Both the position numbers and the translations under genes were made by a program. Positions 36,554 through 62,579 of a stretch of DNA of 64,000 bases are shown piece by piece. Every line of letters begins with the position of its first letter. Position 1 is the first letter of the stretch. The DNA is from a virus (Duplodnaviria; Caudoviricetes), in IMG/VR virus record IMGVR_UViG_3300031555_003522, positions 1-64,000 of that record. One strand, written 5' to 3'. Under the pieces are notes generated by a model. It saw only the letters and a list, made by a program, of their open reading frames with translations, did not search any database and was not told the DNA's origin.

Positions 36554-37567
36554 TCAATACTCCTTTTTAGGCTGATAGAATCTACTTGCTGTAGCATCTT
36601 CCTGTTTATAATATCTACCTCTATAAAGTTTTGCCTTTTTACCTGCAGGGGTAAAGAAACAGACTTGAGCAATTTCTTCATTAGGATAAATACGTACGGG
36701 TTCGACCACAGTAATTTCAAGAGTCCATGTTCCATCAAAACCGATATCTCCAAAACCAGCACAAATATGTATAGAAATACCTAATCTACCGCCAGAAGAA
36801 CGACCGTTAATCATGGGGATAAATCTATCAGTAGCAGTTCTTTCTACAGTTCTACCAATATAGAGAACTCCAGGCTGTAGGACATATCCTTCTTCAGGAA
36901 TCTCAAACTCGATAGTTTCATTTTTCTTATGCATATCGAGAGGAGGTAAGTAATTACTATCAATAATAGGGAGAGATTTAATTTCTTCATCTCTCTCACG
37001 AGACTTACGGTCATTATACTCGACAGTACCTCCAAGCTGATTGAATGCTCCGCTCCATTTGGTTTCAAGAGTGTCTATCTTCTCATCAAATTCGCCCTCA
37101 AGCTCCTTAAATCTATCAGTAATAACATTGGCTGTAATAAAACTAATGCCATGGGAACTAGTCTTTATTTCTGTATCAGCAGAACTATTAGAATCACTAT
37201 ATTTAGTTTCAGATTCTTGAACAGATTCAGTGTTTACGTTTTCGCCTTCATCATTGTTTCGTGCAGGCTCATCAATATAAGAAATATTAGATGCATCAGC
37301 AACTTCAATACCAATTTCACCTTCTTGATGCTGCACCATATCACAAATATTAATAGATGTATTCTCAAATGTCCTAGCGATATGGGGAGTAATATTTGCT
37401 CTCTCAGCATCTCTCTTATAAATAAGAAGCTGAGGGTGAAGCTTTAAATTATAACTATTGGGGTTTACACACTTAGGATCGTAGGGAGTAATCTGGATGT
37501 GGCCCTTCTTTACCCTACGTTCAATTTCTGTTCCGGTAAGCATACCATCTCTAGAAAATAATGACAT
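36554..37567 (-). CDS. dcd: dCTP deaminase with large internal insertion
   Basis: NPNSYNLKL, GRSSGGRLG, AGFGDIGFDGTWTLEI, YRGRY motifs; about 155-aa acidic insert. Confidence 0.85.
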   Translation of the reverse strand: MSLFSRDGMLTGTEIERRVKKGHIQITPYDPKCVNPNSYNLKLHPQLLIYKRDAERANITPHIARTFENTSINICDMVQHQEGEIGIEVADASNISYIDEPARNNDEGENVNTESVQESETKYSDSNSSADTEIKTSSHGISFITANVITDRFKELEGEFDEKIDTLETKWSGAFNQLGGTVEYNDRKSRERDEEIKSLPIIDSNYLPPLDMHKKNETIEFEIPEEGYVLQPGVLYIGRTVERTATDRFIPMINGRSSGGRLGISIHICAGFGDIGFDGTWTLEITVVEPVRIYPNEEIAQVCFFTPAGKKAKLYRGRYYKQEDATASRFYQPKKEY

Positions 37568-37670: not shown

Positions 37671-40226
37671 TTAAATCCTTCTAATAAAACCCTTTAAAAG
37701 TTTAGCAACTGTTTCTACTGTAGTCGCTCTCAGTTTAATAGTTGCACTACTGAAAGGGCTATTTTCAAAATACTCGCTAAAATTAAATTCGGGTTCTAGT
37801 TCTAAAAGCTTCTTCATATAATGCTTAAAGTCATTCATAATCTTAGACTTAGCTTTATATTCATTAGAAGCTATCTGATCTTCTACAGGCATGCTAATAA
37901 ACTTCTTAGAATGGACTCTATTTTCAATAATACAGAGAATCATCCAAAGTTTTGCTAGTTCATATTTCATACCTACAGTATTTTCATTTTTATAATATTC
38001 TTTAAGTAGATTATGAGACTTTCTGTATTCCTCATCATAATCGATAGACTTGATATTCTTCAAAAGCATATTTCCATCTTTATCGAATTGCACAGGAAAC
38101 TCTTTGGTCTCACAATATACTACAGCTTCTGTAGATATAAATACCATATTTTTAAGCACTTTATATTCTACAGAATTTTTATTTAATACAGATTCGAGAT
38201 AAGGCCTAAGCATATTAAGCTTGTCTATATCTCCAGCAGAACTAACCACTTCATGTATATATTCTCTAGGTGTATATCTTCTAATAGATTCTTTAATAGG
38301 CTTAGCTGTATCTACTAAAGAATTAATAGTCTTTTTAACCTGTTCTGAATCATACTTGGTAGCAAGTCCTTCGTAGATTGTAAATATGCTTCTATTGGCT
38401 TTCATAGCATCTTTAATATCATGAGGAGATACCAAAGAAGAATCTTTATGCGTAAGATCTATATTACACAGCTTAAGACATCTATCTACAAACTGAGAAC
38501 ATACCATATTCAAATCATTATTATATGGGATATTGAATAAGTAAGTAAATAGATTCTTATAAGAATATCTCGTCTGCGTAGCCTTAGATTCCAGATCTGC
38601 TACCATATTTACAATAGCATTATAATCATTAGGCTTTAGGAAGAAAGTATATACTCTAATCCTGCATCCTAAAGGAACCTTGTCTATATTCTCTTCAATA
38701 AAGCCTCCCTTTATTCCATTAGGAGACTGGTCTATGCCATAGCTATACATTTTCTTTAATGTATAATCGAAGGATATAGATATATGAGAATATATATCTT
38801 TAGTGACTGCCTTGATAGCCTTGGAAATGAGTCTCTTTCCTTCAGTGAGAATCACATATACAGGTTTAAGATTCTTAGAAGAAGCAGATTCAATAAGAGG
38901 AGCATTTCTCGTAGAAATCATACCTCTTAAATCTATAAATCTAGTATTAGAAGAATTTTCTTTTATATAATATTCCATTCTAGCTTTAGCCATAAGGCGC
39001 TCTTTATTTTCAAAAGGAATATCAGGATTCCAACAAAGCTCAAGTATAGATTGCTTTCTTGCAGCAATAGCATTATCATTTTCAGAGGATTCTAGCACTT
39101 TTAATCCAAATGTAAGCTCTCTAACTTTCTGAATCCATGCTGGCATATAAGTAGAGAATTCTGTATAAAATCCATCAATATGAGCTTTATACATTTCAAA
39201 CCACTCTGCAACAGAAATTTCATCTGTTAGCATTTTATTATCTGCAAGAACTCCATAGAAATTATTACTAGGAATATCAGCAAATACTCCAGAATCTATA
39301 GCTTCATCAGGAGTTATAGCCGGCATATCACCATGAACAATATCTGCACTAGGTATATTGGATACTATTCCATCATAAGTATCTAACACATCCGATATTA
39401 CATTGTCTGTAATCATATTCTCATATATACCTTTATCAACAAGGCATATAGATAGTAGCTTATTAGCAATAGATATACCAGGAGAATTCTTGCAAGATTC
39501 CTTAAGATAATCTCTAGTAAGCTCTATAGAATCTCCAACAATATTGCCACTCTCGATCACACTATACATATCAACATCATTAGATCTGATATCCTGACGT
39601 AAAAATTGGGATTTCAAATACTCATAATGTTTTAAATTTGTGACGCCAAATACTTCTAGACTCATCCAGTCAGATTCTCTACGATGCTTTTTAATCATAC
39701 CATTATAAGCATCCCAAAGAGATTCTAACTCTTCAAGATTTCTAGTAGGGGTTATGATTATACGAGAACTCTCTTCTCCCCACTTAATAGCTTTCTCAAC
39801 ATCTGAGCTTGTATAATTAAGTGTATTTGAGTCATAGTAAGAACCGGTATAGTCTAAATCGATAGCGCCCTCACTAAGAGAAAAGCCCCCATCTGTGACT
39901 AGGTATTCACCATCTTCTATCTCATTATCTATATCTCTTTTAAGTAGATTAGACTTAATCATCTCATAATGATCTTGATTTGTAATTCCGAAGAGCTCTA
40001 TACTCTTCCAGTCAGATTCTCTACGATGCTTCTTAATCATACTATTAAATTTAATCCACTGATCTTCTAGATCTTGAAGATCTTCCGTAGGAATAATAAT
40101 AGTACGCATAGCATCATTAGACCAATTAATAGCATCACTAATACTAGATGCATTTATTTTATTCAAGTTCTTAGATCCACTTATATAGCTGGATACCATG
40201 AATTCTTTGTCTAGCATATTAGGCAT
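37671..40226 (-). CDS. virion protein with tandem N-terminal repeat and permuted papain-like (NlpC/P60, YaeF/YiiX-type) domain
   Basis: Repeat MIKKHRRESDW x2; YSHISISFD...MVCSQFV (His before Cys); many xxES sites; start uncertain (40217-40238). Confidence 0.6.
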   Translation of the reverse strand: MPNMLDKEFMVSSYISGSKNLNKINASSISDAINWSNDAMRTIIIPTEDLQDLEDQWIKFNSMIKKHRRESDWKSIELFGITNQDHYEMIKSNLLKRDIDNEIEDGEYLVTDGGFSLSEGAIDLDYTGSYYDSNTLNYTSSDVEKAIKWGEESSRIIITPTRNLEELESLWDAYNGMIKKHRRESDWMSLEVFGVTNLKHYEYLKSQFLRQDIRSNDVDMYSVIESGNIVGDSIELTRDYLKESCKNSPGISIANKLLSICLVDKGIYENMITDNVISDVLDTYDGIVSNIPSADIVHGDMPAITPDEAIDSGVFADIPSNNFYGVLADNKMLTDEISVAEWFEMYKAHIDGFYTEFSTYMPAWIQKVRELTFGLKVLESSENDNAIAARKQSILELCWNPDIPFENKERLMAKARMEYYIKENSSNTRFIDLRGMISTRNAPLIESASSKNLKPVYVILTEGKRLISKAIKAVTKDIYSHISISFDYTLKKMYSYGIDQSPNGIKGGFIEENIDKVPLGCRIRVYTFFLKPNDYNAIVNMVADLESKATQTRYSYKNLFTYLFNIPYNNDLNMVCSQFVDRCLKLCNIDLTHKDSSLVSPHDIKDAMKANRSIFTIYEGLATKYDSEQVKKTINSLVDTAKPIKESIRRYTPREYIHEVVSSAGDIDKLNMLRPYLESVLNKNSVEYKVLKNMVFISTEAVVYCETKEFPVQFDKDGNMLLKNIKSIDYDEEYRKSHNLLKEYYKNENTVGMKYELAKLWMILCIIENRVHSKKFISMPVEDQIASNEYKAKSKIMNDFKHYMKKLLELEPEFNFSEYFENSPFSSATIKLRATTVETVAKLLKGFIRRI

Positions 40227-41667
40227 TACTATCACCATCCTGTATAGGTGTTTTGAATCGAGAATTAAATACATTATTCATAAGAGAAACTACATCGGAT
40301 CTCTCTAAATCTTCTAGTGTTGGAAAATATTCACTAGCCATAGAAAAATCATTAGGAGTAGAAGCATAAAATCCATTAGGAGTATGATGGATAGAAACAA
40401 CACCGATACGTTTAACCACGTTATATTCGGATATATCTCTTCCTGTTACAATCTCCTTAGATTGCATAACTACACCATTTTCAATTAATTTATTTATTTG
40501 CTTTTCTTTTTTATCATCATAAAGCTTAAAGTATTCATTCATTAAGATTTGCTCGAAGCAACGAAGAGGACGACCAATAATCATTTCAACAAAATGTAAA
40601 CGATTAACGCAGCGGCCAGTACCTATTTCATTCTTAATAGCCTTTATTTTTTCCATAGTATCAGCTTCATTATAGATAAGTGCTATATCAGGAACTGTAT
40701 ATTTTTTCTCAAAGTCTTCTCGACTCATGGTAACTGATTTATAGTCTTCATCTACAATAGCAATATCATCGCTTTCAGAATCTCCATAAGCGAATCCATC
40801 AAAAACATTATTCATACCATATGGAATAATATAAGCTTCTGGAGGGCGATGGGGAGGAAGCCCACCAACCTCTTCATTTATTCTGATTCTCATATTACGA
40901 GAATCATCATCTTCTGTTAAAGCTCCCTCTTTCATATCGGCGAGAATTTCTAATAACTGAGAGAAGTCATTATTCGTCAAACGGATATAATTAAACGTAC
41001 CAAGAGATGTAACCATAGTTTCTTTTGCAACCTGTTTCTCTCTGTAAGACTGCATAGATCTATTATTAGGATTAGATCCACCGTCTTTAACTTCAATAAG
41101 CAAATTTGCAGGAATATAGTAGATATCAGTAATCCACTTATGAGTTTTTCCACCATATTCATACTCAAGAACAGGACCAGGAGATTGAATGTCTTTACCA
41201 GGAATATCTAGCACTTTATCCATAAACTCTAAAGCATTTTTCTCATAAGTACCAGTGTATGTATGCTTTATTCCATCTTTGAATGTATATGTACCAGAAA
41301 TTTTTCTATTGGCTAGCATCTTCTCTTGCTGTTCAGGGTCATCTAATAGATGAGGTTTATTATATACCTTCATATGCCTTTCTAAGGCAATTTCTCTAAC
41401 TTTAGCTTTGCATGCAGGATTCTTACAAAGATTATAATACCTATTAATCTTTGTATTCCATTCATATACAGGAGATTTACAAATCATACAAGTACCATGA
41501 TCTGTATGATTTATAAAATCATATACAGCTCTAGCTGCAGTGTATCCTTGCGGGATAAGATCTTCATGTTTTTTATCTACATGATTTATTACATCAGATC
41601 TAATTCCCTTATAATCACAATAAGGACATTTATACTTCTTGGAAGTCTTATAATTTGGTGTGCTCAT
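40219..41667 (-). CDS. Zn-finger + TnsA-like PD-(D/E)xK endonuclease (head-completion-nuclease-like)
   Basis: CPYC..H..KH C2H2, CMIC..C..C, YE..TDIY..LLIEVKDGG; late promoter 41696-41707 (-). Confidence 0.65.
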   Translation of the reverse strand: MSTPNYKTSKKYKCPYCDYKGIRSDVINHVDKKHEDLIPQGYTAARAVYDFINHTDHGTCMICKSPVYEWNTKINRYYNLCKNPACKAKVREIALERHMKVYNKPHLLDDPEQQEKMLANRKISGTYTFKDGIKHTYTGTYEKNALEFMDKVLDIPGKDIQSPGPVLEYEYGGKTHKWITDIYYIPANLLIEVKDGGSNPNNRSMQSYREKQVAKETMVTSLGTFNYIRLTNNDFSQLLEILADMKEGALTEDDDSRNMRIRINEEVGGLPPHRPPEAYIIPYGMNNVFDGFAYGDSESDDIAIVDEDYKSVTMSREDFEKKYTVPDIALIYNEADTMEKIKAIKNEIGTGRCVNRLHFVEMIIGRPLRCFEQILMNEYFKLYDDKKEKQINKLIENGVVMQSKEIVTGRDISEYNVVKRIGVVSIHHTPNGFYASTPNDFSMASEYFPTLEDLERSDVVSLMNNVFNSRFKTPIQDGDSNA

Positions 41668-41719
41668 ACCTTAATAGATCCTCCCTAAATATTATTACAA
41701 CTATGTTGAGGGTGTTTGA

Positions 41720-41888
41720 AACAAAGACAAGACAGCTGTATTTCTACAGCTGTCTTGTATCTACAACAAAGAAAAAGGAGGTGTACATGAAAATGAACGA
41801 AAAGAAATATATTTTTTAGGAGGTATCAAAATGAAAAACAACAATCCCGCGAACCGGACTACCCATTACGGCAATTTGAGTAACCCTT
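41720..41888 (-). ncRNA. predicted late sRNA with two anti-SD/anti-AUG segments
   Basis: Minus-strand AACA-TATATG-TA (41888-41899), 5' hairpin, U-rich single-stranded core, 14-bp terminator hairpin 41727-41758. Confidence 0.55.
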
Positions 41889-41978
41889 ACATATATGTTA
41901 CTGAAAAGCCAGGTTTTTGGGAGTATTTTTTAACTACTACAACAGATTAATAAAATTCTACTACAGGAGGATGGTATA

Positions 41979-42359
41979 TTGGCTATTACCGAATTTGGGT
42001 TTTCTGTAGATGATTTCAAAAATCCGAAAATTTATAAAAATGCAGAAGCTGTTTCTACTCTATTGGTAAGATTATTGCTTTTAGAGCCAGGAACTATTCA
42101 ATCACATCCCGATATGGGAGTTGGACTCATATCTAAATATAGATATTCTGTAGAAGGGGCAGGAGTTCAACTACAAGGAGAGTATCAGCGGCAAGTTGAG
42201 AAATATTTACCACAATTTCAAGGCGCACAAATAACTGTTACAGAAAAAAATAAACAATTCCAAATTTCTGTACAGATAGATGATACTTTATATGGAATTT
42301 ATTATGATACAAATACAACAGTCGTTCAGAGTGGTTATACCAAACTGATTGATCTATAA
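41979..42359 (+). CDS. gp25-like baseplate wedge/sheath-initiator protein
   Basis: LLLLEPGT..HPDMGVGL motif, 126 aa; late promoter 41941-41952. Confidence 0.6.
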   Translation: MAITEFGFSVDDFKNPKIYKNAEAVSTLLVRLLLLEPGTIQSHPDMGVGLISKYRYSVEGAGVQLQGEYQRQVEKYLPQFQGAQITVTEKNKQFQISVQIDDTLYGIYYDTNTTVVQSGYTKLIDL

Positions 42360-44864: not shown

Positions 44865-44888
44865 TTATTAATTAATAAACATATATTT

Positions 44889-45188
44889 GAAGGTATTATA
44901 TTTCAATTGGAAATATCTATATCTTCAAAATAAACGCCTCATCTATAAAGGTAGGTGATTGAGGCGATAAATACGAGCAAATCCTACCAGGTTGATTATA
45001 AGTCATTATGGGGACTAGTGACATCAACCAGTTACCTGCGCAGGTACTAATAGTTCCCAAAAGTGACGTAGCAATTAGTAGTTGTAGAGGTGATTGACTG
45101 TATTCCTCGTAATCGCTACTATGGGATGTCGAAAAGTCAATAAAGAAGTAGATGGAGAGTGTACAACACTCTCCACTATTTTTTTTTT
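44889..45188 (+). ncRNA. predicted structured ncRNA: 5' hairpin plus three tandem pseudoknots
   Basis: AACA-TATATT-TG promoter 44878-44889; many complementary segments; GGAGAGTGT/ACACTCTCC terminator with long T run; no RBS-led ORF. Confidence 0.65.
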
Positions 45189-45244
45189 GTTTTTCCTTTT
45201 ATTGTCCACTTAATTCACATATTAATAAAAGAGGTGATGCTTAT

Positions 45245-46918
45245 ATGCCAGATTTAATAAGGGGTGATCACCTTAGAGTGAGTCTTATAGACCCCGAAAG
45301 ACTGGTAAAAGTCAATGATCTCAAAGAGATTACCAATCCCATTTCATTCGTTCGAAATTCAGTTCCTACCTCTGATGGATTATTATCTAATGAAATATTT
45401 GGAATTACCAAATATGATCGCGCTAATACATTTGCATACATCGATCTTCATGAGGAGTTTTTAAACCCTCTAATTTATAAGATGTGGTGCAAAGTTGATT
45501 CTAATGTTAAAGCATGCGTTCATGGTATAAAATATTTCAAGATAAATGATAAGGGTGAACTTGAAGAAGATCCGGAAAATGGTGATAATGGTATTAGGTT
45601 TCTTAGAGACAATATTAAGAAAATTAAGATTAAGCGTACTGGATCTAAACAAAGAGACATGCGTGTAGACTTTATAGAGAGCTATATCGGTAAGCCTGAA
45701 ATGTTTATTAAGAAATATATAGTATGCCCAGCATTCTATAGAGACGTTAATAACGATAAAGGCAAAGTATCTTTAGGAGCAATCAATGAATTGTATAGGT
45801 CTTTGTTGATCTCTGTTAGAGCTCTTAGAGAGTCCTCCGAATATGGTTTAAATCTAACTTCTGCTACTCGTGGTCGTATACAGGAAACTCTTGTTCAAAT
45901 ATACGACTGGTTTGGATCTGGTACTACTATAAATGGCGAGAAAACTAGCAATCTTATTCCTGGCAAATTTGGTATTATTAGACAGGGTGTTATGTCCAAA
46001 ACAACAGACTATGCTACTCGTCTAGTTCTATCGGCTCCAGAACTCAAGGTTGAACGGTTAGAGGATGTAGAAGCAGATCTCGATTATTCTGTACTTCCGT
46101 TAGCATCTGCTTGTGCAAACTTCCTTCCGTTCATAGTATATCATGTGAGAAGAATGTTTGAAAATGAGTTCTCTGGAGATGCGGTTATACCCTATATAAA
46201 TAAAGATAAGAGTATAACCTATTTACATCCGAAAGATTATCAAGTAGAATTTTCTGATGAAAGAATTAAGAAAGAAATAGATAGATTTTTGACAGGTTTC
46301 TCAAATAGATTTATTCCTTTAGAAGTTCCTACAGTAGAAGGTATTACTGTACGCTATAGATTTAAAGGATATAATATGACTGCTGAAGAGTATGCAAAAT
46401 CTGATATAGGTAAGATGCCTATAATGGAACGAGACTTAACTTGGTGTGATATACTCTATCAAGCAGCAGTAGAAGCTACAAAAGATAAACATATACTGAT
46501 TACCAGGTATCCTATAGACACTTATTTTAATCAGTTTCCAACCAAGATTAAAATAGCTTCTACCACAAGAACTGAACCTATGGTTGTAGGTAGTAAATTC
46601 TATAAAAATTATCCCTATATTCGTCAAGAAGATATTGGTACTAATACTTCTAATAAATTTATTGATACTTTGAATATTAGTAATCTATATCTAGATGGAA
46701 TAGGTGGAGATTATGATGGTGACCAGGTAACCGTAAAGGGAGCCTTTACAGAAGAGACAAATGCAGAGCTTGCTGAACAGCTTAAATCTAAAGCTCACTA
46801 CTTTAATCTTGGTGGTAAGGGTGTTAGAACTTCTGATAAAGAAGCTATTCAGAGCTTATATAGTTTGACATTGTGTCTAGATGCGGATAAAGAAAAAATC
46901 TCTGCACCTGTTTTCTAA
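45245..46918 (+). CDS. rpoC: phage RNA polymerase beta'-like N-terminal subunit with catalytic motif (virion-RNAP type)
   Basis: DGLLSNEIFG, PGKFGIIR, TRYP, GGDYDGD; start ATG 45245 after GAGGTG. Confidence 0.85.
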   Translation: MPDLIRGDHLRVSLIDPERLVKVNDLKEITNPISFVRNSVPTSDGLLSNEIFGITKYDRANTFAYIDLHEEFLNPLIYKMWCKVDSNVKACVHGIKYFKINDKGELEEDPENGDNGIRFLRDNIKKIKIKRTGSKQRDMRVDFIESYIGKPEMFIKKYIVCPAFYRDVNNDKGKVSLGAINELYRSLLISVRALRESSEYGLNLTSATRGRIQETLVQIYDWFGSGTTINGEKTSNLIPGKFGIIRQGVMSKTTDYATRLVLSAPELKVERLEDVEADLDYSVLPLASACANFLPFIVYHVRRMFENEFSGDAVIPYINKDKSITYLHPKDYQVEFSDERIKKEIDRFLTGFSNRFIPLEVPTVEGITVRYRFKGYNMTAEEYAKSDIGKMPIMERDLTWCDILYQAAVEATKDKHILITRYPIDTYFNQFPTKIKIASTTRTEPMVVGSKFYKNYPYIRQEDIGTNTSNKFIDTLNISNLYLDGIGGDYDGDQVTVKGAFTEETNAELAEQLKSKAHYFNLGGKGVRTSDKEAIQSLYSLTLCLDADKEKISAPVF

Positions 46919-47398: not shown

Positions 47399-47863
47399 AT
47401 GAAACAGCCATCAAAATGTATCTTACTAAGTAATATTACTATGCACCTGAGCTTTATGACCAATTATTATGATCATCTAAAGCCTACTATGACAATTGAA
47501 GCTTTCTGCAAAGAAAACATAATAGGAATTAGTCTAGAGAAAATAAGTAATATATTATCATGTGTAGGAGAAGCTATAACCAATATCAAAGAGCATGCAT
47601 ATACTGAAGAATTTCCTGGTATGGTTCATATTATTTGTAATTATAGAAATAATAATACTCTTGTAATTACAATAATTGATAATGGTTGTGGAATTCAGAA
47701 TCTTGAACAAGCATTCCAATCTGGATGGTCTAGTAAAGAGGGATTTTCTGGTATGGGTTTCACGATTATGGATTCTCTCTGTGATGAATTTGAAGTATCA
47801 ACAACCACACCTGATAAGGGTACAAAGGTTATCATGACATTTAAAGTTGGAATTAATGATTAA
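47399..47863 (+). CDS. spoIIAB: SpoIIAB/RsbW-like anti-sigma factor Ser/Thr kinase (GHKL)
   Basis: EAITN..EHAY (N-box), DNGCGI (G1), SGMGFTIM (G2, as in SpoIIAB), GTKVIM. Confidence 0.75.
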   Translation: MKQPSKCILLSNITMHLSFMTNYYDHLKPTMTIEAFCKENIIGISLEKISNILSCVGEAITNIKEHAYTEEFPGMVHIICNYRNNNTLVITIIDNGCGIQNLEQAFQSGWSSKEGFSGMGFTIMDSLCDEFEVSTTTPDKGTKVIMTFKVGIND

Positions 47864-53717: not shown

Positions 53718-56700
53718 ATGGGCCAACAAAAGGAATTAATGGAGGCTATGGAGTTCTTTGATCCCATACCATTTCAATATGTGGATGAATGGACACCTGG
53801 TCCGGACGATGAAGTCTTTAAAACTACTCGAGGCGCAATAATGTTAGATGTATCTGGTTTCTATGGGATGGAACCAAACCCACAGCTAGATGCATTTGTA
53901 TTGAGTGCTAAGAGGTCTTATAATAATCCTGATATGAGGACCCATACGTGCCATTACCTGAACTATTTTGAAAAATTCTATGATACTGATCACGAATTAC
54001 CAATGATTTATTGTAGATTAAAGTATCTCATTGATTGTGAACCTGCTTATAGTAGAGAGGCATTTATTTACGATCTTTATCGTTATATTATGCATGGATC
54101 TATCTATACAAAGGTTAGCTATATGAATGATGCTAACTACAGTCTATCATTAACCTATAAAAACGTGAAGAATCCTAATCTTCAATATAGTGATTGAGAA
54201 CAGTCACCTCGATATAGAAATATAGCGAGTAAAACTCCTCTAATTGCTGGAAACTCGTAAAGCTCATCTGCTACGGATATGGGAAACGAAAAAGGGAGTA
54301 CCTATCCTACAGAGACGAAAGTCAGAAACAAGTGATGAGATGATCTATGAGGAAACTCTAAGGGTTTAGCCATCAATCGACAACCAGCAGCCAAGCAAAT
54401 TAAGCTACGCAAACTAGCTTCGGATTATTTTAAACATATATTCGCCGGTATGATGGAATTGGTAAGACATAAGAGACTTAAAATCTCTCGGATTAAGTTC
54501 CGTACCGGTTCGAGTCCGGTTACCGGCACCAACCTATTTATAGATTCTGTGGTTATGAATCTATACCAAAATATAATCCACATACTTAACCAGCGTAGCC
54601 AAGTTGAAGGTTCAACGACTATCGAAAGGATAGTGCGACATGCTTGCAACGCATGTGCATGAATAACCGAGTAGAGTAGGGCTCGAGCGAGCTCGAAATG
54701 GGGAGCACCTTAGCGGATAAGTGCCGAAGGTGAAGATATAGTCTGGACTATGGGTAATGCCTATAGAAGTTCATTAAAGAACTGCGCACCAAAAGCGACG
54801 TGCGTGAACATCTCGAGGCATGGACGGATAATGATGAAAGTATCAGTCCTCATGAATATAATTATCCCTCTTATGTGTCATTTTATGTATGCGCGTAAGA
54901 TTGATAATACAACTGAGTTTATTCTCGCTGTCTACGACGTACTTATTGATCAGTATGACGTAGATATATACAATAAGCTGTACGAAACGGCTATCTCTAA
55001 TGTCTTACGTACAGCAAAAAGAAATCAAGCAATCTGGAATATGCAAGATATTCGTGGTATCAATACTAGTATCCACAGTCTACAGTCAGTACAGAATGTC
55101 TTGATAAATATAATGCCTTAACCAAACTAGGGCCATATGATAGCAATATCATATAGCAAACTCCTTTAATTGCTGGGAACTCTCACTGAGACAATCAGCA
55201 GCGAAGCCTCTATATGGGGAACGTTCAACGACTATCGAAAGGATAATGTAAGAGAAATACTTACATGAATAACCGAGTAGAGTAGGATTTATGTCCGAAA
55301 TGGGGAGCATCTTAAATATGGTAATAGTATTTGAGATGAAGATATAGTCTACTCCTTGCAGCGATGTAAGGTATACAGGAAATATAGGTACGATGGAAAT
55401 TTGTGACAAAGTTTCCTCATGTGGGAACACATGATCCAACAAGCTCTCTAATTGCTGGGAACTCTCACTGAGACAATCAGCAGCGAAGCCTCTATATGAG
55501 GAACGTTCAACGACTAGTCGAAAGACGTAGGTTCAAGCGAACCGAAATGGGAGCCACCCCAATGCTTAATAAATAAGTAATGGGTGAAGATATAGTCTGG
55601 TCTGCATGGCAACATGCAGTAGTTCATAAGAGAACAGTGTAAGATTAGCGATCTTACACGAACAACCGCTTGTCCATCTCAACTACAAGTCAATTTTACG
55701 AAATACTGGATTTCAGGTTCTGGATAATCATTTAAATGTCCACATACATGGTAACATGTATAGTAAAACTTCTTTAATTGCTGGAAGGCTAAACTTGATT
55801 AAGCAAGCATGCTAATCAGCAGCCAAGATGTTAATTTAATGATTCGGAGAGTATCTAAAATGATGACTTATGATTTTTCCAATTATTCTTATAATGGACT
55901 TCAAGTCCCTATAGAATTTTGGAAACCCATTACAGAAGAAATGGTTCCAAATGTGAAACCAATATACTTTGTAAGTAATATAGGAAATATTTATAATTCT
56001 GAGAATAATAAATATTCTATAATTACACTAAAAGCTGGTAGATATGTACAGGTTAGTCTTCGTACTAAAGATGGAGGACAAATCTGTATTCATATTCATA
56101 GATTAGTGGCCATGGCATTTCATGGAATGCCACCATCTAAAGACCATGAAGTAGATCATGTAAATTGCGATAAAACCTGTAATTTTGAGGGTAATCTTGA
56201 ATGGGTAACCCCAAAAGAAAATATAAATAGAGCTTGCATAAATAATTTGATTAGGATGGGTGAAGATAATTATAGAGCTATCTTAACCAATGATGATGTA
56301 ACTCATTTATGTGAATTACTAATGCAATCCATTCCTATCTCTAAAATATGTACTATGATGGAAGAGTATATCTATCCTAGAGTATATAGCAGCGGATTTA
56401 AAGGCTTAATAGGTCATATATTATGTGGAGATGTATGGAAAGAAATCGCAAGTCAATACAATTTTCCAGATTACGGTAGATTAAATTTTACCGATGATCA
56501 AGTTCGTATAATATGCGAATGCCTGAGCAGACAGGAACGATATATAGACATTCTTGATAAACTCGGTATGAGCAACTGTACAGAGCAGGAATTGAAGAGA
56601 CTAAAAGAGACTATATATAAGATCAAAGCAGGTAAGTCTTATGCTAATATTTCTTGTAATTACAATATTACAAGAAATAAGAGTTATATACTTACAAATA

Positions 56701-58029
56701 ATGAAGTTGATAGTATATGTAGGCAAGTAGCTCTTGGTATTGATAGAAAGGAAATAGTAAAATCCTTAGGCGAGCGTGGTAATGATAGAAAGGTAAAACA
56801 AGCAGCATATGATATATGTAATGGTATCTGCCATAAAAAAGAAGTCAATTATTATAGATCTCAATTAACAGAAGGTTCAACGACTATCGAAAAGGATCCT
56901 AATAAGGATTAACTGAGTAGAGTAGGGCTCAAGCGAGTTCGAAATGGGAAGGGTCCACTAAAGTGGATCGTGATATAGTCTCAACTGTATGGAAACATGC
57001 AGAAGTTCATAGGAGAACTGCATAGGAGTTGCGATCCTATGTGAAGGTAATGATAGAATATGAATTCAGCTTCGTATCTCTTTCCTCAAGTCGCAGAGAC
57101 GAGGATCTTAATTCTGAATTTGATAAATTTGAGTCAACTTAAGAAAAGGCTCCTTGTTATAGAAATATAGCAAGCAAACCTCTTGAATTGCTGGGAACTC
57201 TTAATGCCTATCTGCCTATATGGAGACGAAAGTCAGAAACAAGTGATGGGATGATCTATGGGGAAACCCTAATGATTTTGATAATAGATAATCAGCAGCG
57301 AAGCCTCTTATTGAGAGGAACGTTCAACGACTATCGAAAGGCATCTATAGGATGAACCGAGTAGAGTAGGATATTTATATATCCGAAGTGGGAGGTACCT
57401 GACCGAGTAATGTCGAAGGTAATGATATAGTCTACTGAATAAGAACAGCTTTTCTTAATAAAGCAGATGAGCAGCTTCTGGTTCAGCATAATTGCGCTGC
57501 TAGAGATGCTATGACTATGATTGAAATGATGTATGGTCCTTTTGATGAGGAAGAAATATTGTTCTATAAACATCGTCTTGCAGATGGTGGGAAATGTACA
57601 ATCAATGCGTTCCAGAGAGACCTCATCTTCAATCTATTCTTTAAGTATTTTGGTGATACTGCTAGCTTAAATGCTATTAACTTCGATGACTATGTCAAGT
57701 TAATTATGGCATCCAGAAGAATTCTTGAAGCTTCTGGAATGGTATTATTGCCCTATATTGTAAGCTCTAAGATTGTTCGTCTTGCTAGCCGCAAGAGTGT
57801 GAACAAGAAAGAGCTTACCAAATTAGAATCTTCTCCCCTATGGGAAAAGATCAAAGATAAGTATAAGAATGATAAAATTGAGAAACACATACTTGGTATG
57901 ATTGCTGTCATATTAAGTAGTGACTTCGAGATCATTGATCCGGAAGATCTGGAGCTTGATGGCCAAGCTATTACAGTGATTCCTGAACTGATCTGTGAAG
58001 AAATTCTCATGTATATTAGTCTTATCTAA
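53718..58029 (+). CDS. spliced gene, six exons (53718-54194, 54816-55118, 55380-55400, 55669-55725, 57053-57134, 57449-58029), about 506 aa; probable non-virion RNAP promoter-specificity (sigma-like, AR9 gp226/phiKZ gp68 type) subunit
   Basis: Removing five introns (exon ends in U, intron ends in G) gives one open frame ..LQYSD|RHGRIMM..INIMP|KYRYDGN|LVHLN..QVLD|IEYEF..DKFES|FLNKAD..; identity inferred from recalled motifs, size and early promoter. Confidence 0.7.
54195..54815 (+). mobile_element. group I intron 1 (contains tRNA-Leu)
   Basis: P1 GTGAT/GTCAC with U.G; AATTGCTGGAAA, CAGCAGCCAAG, TTCAACGACTA, GATATAGTC core; 3' end G54815 (or G54818). Confidence 0.85.
54444..54531 (+). tRNA. 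trnL: tRNA-Leu(UAA), CCA encoded
   Basis: Acceptor GCCGGTA/TACCGGC, anticodon arm AGAGA-CTTAAAA-TCTCT, long variable arm, ACCGG-TTCGAGT-CCGGT, A73, CCA. Confidence 0.95.
55119..55379 (+). mobile_element. group I intron 2 (no ORF)
   Basis: P1 GCCT/GGGC; full core motifs; P9 CCTTGCA-GCGA-TGTAAGG; ends in G. Confidence 0.85.
55401..55668 (+). mobile_element. group I intron 3 (no ORF)
   Basis: P1 GGAAAT/GTTTCC; P10 TTGTC/GACAA; full core motifs; ends in G. Confidence 0.85.
55726..57052 (+). mobile_element. group I intron 4 (HNH homing endonuclease in P6)
   Basis: P1 TGGAT/GTCCA; core motifs flank the ORF; ends in G. Confidence 0.85.
55860..56912 (+). CDS. intron-encoded HNH homing endonuclease (NUMOD4-like N-term, three C-terminal helical repeats)
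   Basis: HRLVAMAF..VDHVNCDKTCN...NLEWVT.KEN; repeats LTNDDV/FTDDQV/LTNNEV; GGAGAG RBS before 55860. Confidence 0.85.
   Translation: MMTYDFSNYSYNGLQVPIEFWKPITEEMVPNVKPIYFVSNIGNIYNSENNKYSIITLKAGRYVQVSLRTKDGGQICIHIHRLVAMAFHGMPPSKDHEVDHVNCDKTCNFEGNLEWVTPKENINRACINNLIRMGEDNYRAILTNDDVTHLCELLMQSIPISKICTMMEEYIYPRVYSSGFKGLIGHILCGDVWKEIASQYNFPDYGRLNFTDDQVRIICECLSRQERYIDILDKLGMSNCTEQELKRLKETIYKIKAGKSYANISCNYNITRNKSYILTNNEVDSICRQVALGIDRKEIVKSLGERGNDRKVKQAAYDICNGICHKKEVNYYRSQLTEGSTTIEKDPNKD
57135..57448 (+). mobile_element. group I intron 5 (no ORF, very short 3' domain)
   Basis: P1 GAGT/GCTC; perfect 8-bp P10 AAGAAAAG/CTTTTCTT; core motifs; splits a Ser codon T|CT. Confidence 0.85.
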
Positions 58030-62414: not shown

Positions 62415-62579
62415 ATGACAAGAGAACATCTTGGCGTTTTATTAGATGCTAAAGAAAAATTATGTAATTCATGTGATGCTATACATTGTGATATTTGTTA
62501 TGTGCCTAAGTTAATTGAGAAGCACAGAGAGCAGGTAGTTAAAAACGAAGAACATACAAACAATGATCATAAAAAATAG
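62415..62579 (+). CDS. 54-aa Cys-rich protein (not in ORF track)
   Basis: GGAGGT RBS; CNSC..CDIC. Confidence 0.55.
   Translation: MTREHLGVLLDAKEKLCNSCDAIHCDICYVPKLIEKHREQVVKNEEHTNNDHKK

Follow-up and report, generated by a model that had tools for sequence, protein, structure and literature searches.

GcvB, an Hfq-dependent RNA of enterobacteria, has a U/G-rich unpaired stretch that can pair by wobble with A/C-rich mRNA. In Firmicutes, RsaE/RoxS carries duplicated unpaired C-rich motifs that pair with the Shine-Dalgarno (SD) sequences of several different mRNAs and prevent initiation complexes from forming (PMC6158497), and in alphaproteobacteria the cuckoo family (RSs0680/CcsR, alpha-r14) presents CCUCCUCCC motifs in 2-4 adjacent hairpin loops (PMC4615179). 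In the phages P1 and P7, the c4 antisense RNA acts in trans on a ribosome-binding region and blocks translation, being an immunity RNA of temperate phages with a defined target, the ant mRNA (PMC12197685). For jumbo phages, the available part of the AR9 study describes antisense RNAs that overlap genes in cis (PMC5312081), and the available part of the report on 201phi2-1 and phiKZ describes sRNAs of no known function, with no target and no anti-ribosome-binding-site (anti-RBS) module assigned there to those of 201phi2-1 (PMC11512511).

Here we analyse a predicted non-coding RNA of about 165-170 nt (41720..41888, minus strand) in a window of 64,000 nucleotides, positions 1 to 64,000 of the virus record IMGVR_UViG_3300031555_003522. 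By analogy, the RNA works most like RsaE/RoxS, the cuckoo RNAs and c4 of P1, and it is a member of none of them. It has repeated C-rich motifs able to pair with the SD sequence as in RsaE/RoxS, a likeness of function only, with no homology in sequence or structure by the Rfam covariance models; it differs in being phage-encoded, in its late promoter, in modules that reach across the spacer, the AUG and the first codons, and in a module number of 1-3. With the cuckoo RNAs it shares a modular build and a variable number of anti-SD motifs, but its motifs are CCUCCU/CUCCUU, with CCUCCU followed by U or A, and they lie in a long single-stranded, unpaired linker, each together with an anti-AUG, so that membership of that family was rejected. 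By contrast to c4, it has no Rfam C4 match and no such target, and its predicted expression is late rather than linked to immunity. Like GcvB, it has a U/G-rich unpaired stretch; its UUGUUG tracts are kept solely in the closest relatives, and membership was rejected on this ground and for want of an Rfam match. At the gathering score no Rfam family, including RsaE, GcvB, C4 and alpha-r14, matched in 41600-42000, the best matches by E-value having 9-19 bits, far below the cut-offs. No DNA match to the unit was found among 50,697 deposited phages, and literature searches found no description of an RNA like 41720-41888.

The virus record, of 159,799 bases and judged 65% complete, is that of an uncultured AR9-like jumbo phage from the gut. 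Its split RNA polymerase beta' subunit (45245-46918) has its nearest deposited relatives, at 32-34% identity, in Listeria phage LPJP1, Staphylococcus phage SA1 and Bacillus phage Goe21. Many of its genes have AACA-N6-TA or TATATTAT motifs upstream, which agree with the mapped promoters, late and early, of Bacillus phage AR9, as given in the available part of that study (PMC5312081). Early genes favour an AAGGAGA SD and late genes GGAGG, AAGGAGA being present in 12 of 21 early versus 1 of 27 late genes of this record (G000); the preference is found in G000, G001 and G002 with Fisher p values of 4e-5, 5e-3 and 1e-4, respectively. An anti-sigma-F-like (SpoIIAB-like HATPase) gene at 47399-47863, having top matches in Clostridia such as Oscillospiraceae (33-43% identity), hints by these matches alone at a spore-forming gut Firmicute as the host. 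A dCTP deaminase gene (36554-37567), which bears a long acidic insertion, hints together with the AR9-type promoters at uracil-containing DNA. Four group I intron matches are spread across 54185-57443, with a tRNA (54444-54528) inside the first one.

The unit lies in a gap of 311 nt between two divergent genes, one for a C2H2 zinc-finger endonuclease-like protein (40219..41667, minus strand; phrog_15137, E 1e-36, with weak zinc-finger Pfam matches) and one for a baseplate wedge gp25-like protein (41979..42359, plus strand; PF04965 at E 0.0066, below the cut-off, a family annotated on several homologues of the protein). The nuclease homologue at L130:247-2205 has 652 aa and an acetyltransferase domain. 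Three late promoter motifs lie in the gap, one for each flanking gene (nuclease, 41696..41707, minus strand; gp25-like, 41941..41952, plus strand) and a third, separate one on the minus strand at 41888..41899, back to back with that of the gp25-like gene. It is noted that a motif like the nuclease promoter is also present in some relatives that have no RNA (L027, L033, L041). The third promoter, with a predicted +1 at 41888, has the AACA-N6-TA/G form of an AR9-type late transcription unit, the consensus being the same as in AR9 according to the available part of that study (PMC5312081). Downstream of it follow a 5' hairpin (41856..41886) of 9-10 bp with three G-U pairs and an 11-13-nt loop, in which the motif GCCGU(A) occupies 41867..41872; module B (41817..41844), the complement of an SD, a 7-nt spacer, AUG and A-rich codons; module A (41772..41797), built in the same way with a 5-nt spacer; and an intrinsic terminator (41718..41758), with a 14-bp stem (41758-41727) and a U-rich tail, that starts 130 nt after the promoter. 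The RNA folds better than shuffles (z = -2.69), and its core is predicted to be largely unpaired, both CCUCCU having an unpaired probability of about 0.8-0.9. A preliminary description, made from the letters of the locus, had placed two SD-ATG units with ORFs of 10 and 39 codons on the plus strand, and the late promoter, the 5' hairpin, the unstructured core and the 14-bp terminator hairpin on the minus strand, and all of these were recovered at the coordinates above. The two ORFs (41787..41819 and 41831..41950, plus strand) appear as by-products of modules A and B, respectively, and no PHROG family matched the longer one.

This arrangement is more than chance, because AGGAGG-ATG sites with ORFs shorter than 70 aa number only 6 in the 160-kb record, with 2 of them in this gap, and because all 17 homologous sequences have the late promoter of the RNA, a motif with a frequency of 0.3 per kb per strand, in the same position. 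In a genome-wide descriptor search for a late promoter, an ORF-free stretch and a terminator, it was the only unit of the record with two anti-RBS modules.

With homologous loci gathered via both flanking proteins, the unit was found at the same locus in 17 sequences from about 15 distinct phages, with gp25 identities of 52-91%. The layout shared among them is a promoter at a distance of about 80-90 nt from the start of gp25, an RNA of 130-290 nt, a terminator and then the nuclease promoter. In a tree of the two flanking proteins, made by a quick method, 16 of the 17 RNA-bearing sequences could be placed, and these form one clade (SH-aLRT 98) that requires one change, a single gain, the sister lineages L003 and L060 having gaps of 139 and 121 nt without the RNA. 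A covariance model built from the eight closest RNAs recovers the syntenic copies in L001, L133, L026, L034, L147, L146 and L059, with zero matches in 13 outgroup loci. Module A is the most conserved module, its ACCUCCUUUU block being invariant, as is the GCCGU(A) loop, in the alignment of the eight closest relatives (A1), while module B is retained in L128-L132 and L057. The RNAs have 1-3 modules each, and some mix the GGAGG type with the AAGGAGA type. In the subgroup of L133, L134, L146, L026, L147 and L001, a long-range stem takes the place of the local 5' hairpin and closes the modules into one large loop. Note also that L026 and L147 have an AGGAG stretch inside the RNA, at positions of about 15-65, for which pairing with that RNA's own first anti-SD module is predicted, possibly a built-in switch.

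The AUG lies 5-10 nt past the SD in 26 of the 28 SD modules, versus a background of 18% (about 13 modules being independent). The letters of SD, spacer and AUG are by themselves compatible with both strands, and it is the promoter, the terminator tail and the G-U pairs that decide between them. The terminator hairpin is present in all homologues, with a T-rich tail after it on the minus side. When helices called in a strand-neutral way are read as the minus strand, they have 31 G-U versus 10 A-C pairs (p 0.0015), and in the stems of the 5' hairpin G-U pairs are present and A-C pairs absent. Moreover, 6 of the 9 pairs of the 5' hairpin have changed on both sides among eight relatives, and on three of five measures of covariation none of 500 shuffles reaches the observed value, a count that is no true probability because the sequences are related. 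The plus-strand frames, of 8-64 codons, are frameshifted even between phages with 91% identical gp25; among relatives the module A frame has 8-64 aa in varying frame, and the module B frame has 15-50 aa and is frameshifted. Judged from these patterns of sequence change, the functional strand is the minus strand, kept as RNA and not as peptides. Conserved peptides in place of the antisense layout had been named beforehand as a finding that would count against the RNA, and the reverse is seen, the layout being kept while the peptides vary. With its own promoter and intrinsic terminator, no conserved coding frame, and a conserved structure that includes compensatory changes, the unit has features of the trans-acting base-pairing sRNAs. 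A 16-codon frame on the RNA itself was rejected, having no SD and no conservation.

We consider it somewhat more probable than its negation that 41720-41888 is a phage-encoded trans-acting sRNA that represses a limited set of messages by masking their start sites. In this model, the phage's own non-virion RNA polymerase would start the RNA at 41888 late in infection, and the RNA would end at its own terminator, as the conserved signals suggest; late expression is very likely. As sequence comparison shows, both ends of the RNA carry protective structure, and between them lie 1-3 single-stranded modules, each complementary to a whole initiation region. The C-rich anti-SD seeds would pair with the message, the U-rich arm would zip across the AUG and the next codons with the use of G-U wobble, and the paired message would keep the 30S subunit off. 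Each module would probably repress a few messages that combine a strong SD with an A-rich start, from accessory genes of the phage and possibly from the host, rather than all messages. It is likely that the repression occurs by base pairing, be the targets few or a whole class. RsaE/RoxS (PMC6158497) and c4 (PMC12197685) are precedents for pairing through a C-rich anti-SD, and the same genomes hold other late-promoter units with anti-RBS stretches. The post-AUG codons complemented in the modules are 66% A, versus 39-42% in real genes. Two relatives argue against the anti-RBS mechanism, L136, which keeps the RNA and has lost the anti-AUG, and L146, which has weak SD modules only; the mechanism also leaves the invariant GCCGU loop unexplained. 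This motif, with a background of 0.08-0.3 per kb, is met again, at other positions, in L026, L147 and L136, a separate G001 unit has two copies of it, and it may be a protein-binding site.

Within its own genome, the best partner of the RNA is an early gene of 104 aa at G000:102622 (L148:1001-1315), with -39.9 kcal/mol and z -3.6, and the second candidate is the gene at 62415. The leader of the 104-aa gene is predicted to pair with the RNA in four colinear blocks from the gene's predicted +1. Both partners lie inside the control range (mean -3.2, minimum -3.8), and chance cross-genome matches score z 4-5.8. The 104-aa gene has one homologue only, with a different SD in the leader, and is absent from G001; it is far rarer than module B, which is present in seven phages. 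No orthologous target common to three phages was found. As these points stand against naming targets, the 104-aa early gene is a candidate target in the sense of a lead only; specific targets may be unseen because a third of the source genome is missing. Two other matches were rejected, a pair of 65/66-aa genes (G000, G002) that are not homologous, and a 14-nt exact match to the start of a G002 early gene, ascribed to chance as it is cross-genome and the G000 orthologue has no such match. A scan of viral contigs for the pattern of tandem modules lacked specificity.

The preliminary description had proposed an RNA that masks consensus SD-AUG regions of host or early phage messages; as a class-wide silencer, which we regard as unlikely, it would titrate these regions in bulk and free the ribosomes for late phage messages. 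The 5-10-nt spacers span the natural range and some RNAs bear both SD types, as such a silencer would have it. Moreover, the modules bind real start regions at -16.1 kcal/mol, more broadly than SD-matched control complements taken from real start regions (-14.7 kcal/mol), where the modules are not independent, and they lean to a proxy host (difference -1.03 versus -0.37 kcal/mol). No single perfect target was found either: an exact search of GTDB with the cores of the two modules gave only 5 and 4 genes, all unrelated, and wobble-tolerant full-length patterns occur in 6 and 0 of 301 Clostridia-class genomes, with no recurring full-length host match. However, no means of sparing the late messages was found, since early and late starts of the own genome are bound alike (-17.5 versus -17.6 kcal/mol, p 0.58; p 0.57 in a second test) and the modules of the source phage are of the GGAGG type that late genes prefer. 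The ATG-AA bias that early genes were said to have is absent (14% early versus 16% late in the source genome). The preference for the proxy host, a Lachnospiraceae set of different GC, is seen in 2 of 4 phages only, for the RNAs of the source phage and L001 and not for those of L034 or L026, and the conservation of spacer letters across 61% protein identity suggests particular partners. Thus, from the preliminary description, a late minus-strand non-coding RNA with anti-SD and anti-AUG segments stands, whereas the selectivity for early genes and the likeness to GcvB do not. Alternatively, the RNA could be a decoy that mimics the 3' end of 16S rRNA and, instead of mRNAs, binds proteins that recognise the anti-SD tail or helix 45, for example maturation factors or a defence nuclease that cuts the anti-SD. 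This we think quite unlikely; it is kept alive by the invariant loop hexamer GCCGUA, which is identical to the 5' strand of helix 45 in the 16S rRNA of a Firmicute, and by L136, which keeps anti-SD and GCCGU without the anti-AUG. The modules also hold ACCUCCUU as in the 16S tail, and a second unit, at G002:166493 (L276:162-201), has 12 terminator-stem nucleotides identical to the 3' strand of helix 45, a match that may be chance. If this proposal were true, there would be no need for the CAU that 26 of 28 modules have at the distance of a start codon; furthermore, the parts of helix 45 do not occur in the order needed to rebuild it, and the matches are short and were found after the fact.

Two further alternatives question the extent or the strand of the transcript rather than its partners. 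It is very unlikely that the unit is an attenuator-type 5' leader, with the upstream promoter reading through a regulated terminator into the nuclease gene, which lies 50 nt downstream on the same strand. The U tail of the terminator is interrupted in the source phage, as could be expected of such a leader, but tails of 7-9 T occur in many relatives, every fold gives the stem of 10-15 bp with near certainty and without a competing helix, and in nearly all homologues the nuclease gene has its own late promoter past the terminator. A functional plus strand, whether with two translated mini-ORFs, as a ribosome decoy or as a G-rich sponge that takes up CsrA or C-rich sRNAs of the host, is more improbable still. 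Its ideal SD-AUG-AAA contexts are what selection for strong initiation would also yield, and TATAAT-like letters lie upstream of module A in four relatives. However, no conserved plus-strand promoter exists among the relatives, in agreement with the lack of one noted at the outset; the plus-strand late promoter of the gp25-like gene is downstream of both mini-ORF starts, and a plus-strand early promoter was rejected because the sequence resembling the early motif matches it imperfectly and lies directly against the SD. The peptides vary over 8-64 aa, and the G-U pairs and the terminator tail fit the minus strand only. A type I toxin-antitoxin system was likewise rejected, the opposite-strand peptides of 8-64 aa being frameshifted and having no upstream plus-strand promoter.

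If the RNA is the trans-acting repressor of a limited message set proposed above, lytic jumbo phages would control translation by trans-acting RNAs. The RNA family is undescribed and has a readable mechanism, complete start sites being present as a mirror image; gained once, it then varied in module number, SD type and spacing, and this natural series of modules would show the range, from narrow to broad, that is open to an anti-RBS RNA. A wider reading, rather unlikely at present, is that jumbo phages run a modular layer of RNA-based translation control, in which late RNAs carry exchangeable anti-initiation-site cassettes, differing in SD type and spacing and held by GCCGU as a shared protein-binding motif. 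In that case the translation of the host or of off-stage phage messages would be shut off in bulk, a protein-free shut-off of host translation that is not known from lytic phages.

Further ORF-free units with a late promoter, a 5' hairpin, one anti-RBS-like stretch and a terminator are present in this record (G000, about 146,120-146,230, 65.7 kb before the window start and on the same strand as the window), in G001 (101253, plus; 80663, minus) and in G002 (166493, 138619 and 202456, all minus). Within their own genomes, the best partners of these units go no further than z -2.5 to -3.5. Finally, we note that in the window an ORF-free stretch of about 300 nt (44878-45190), which contains a late-type promoter as well as a hairpin with a run of T, lies just upstream of the RNA polymerase beta' gene and is possibly a second non-coding RNA or a long leader.
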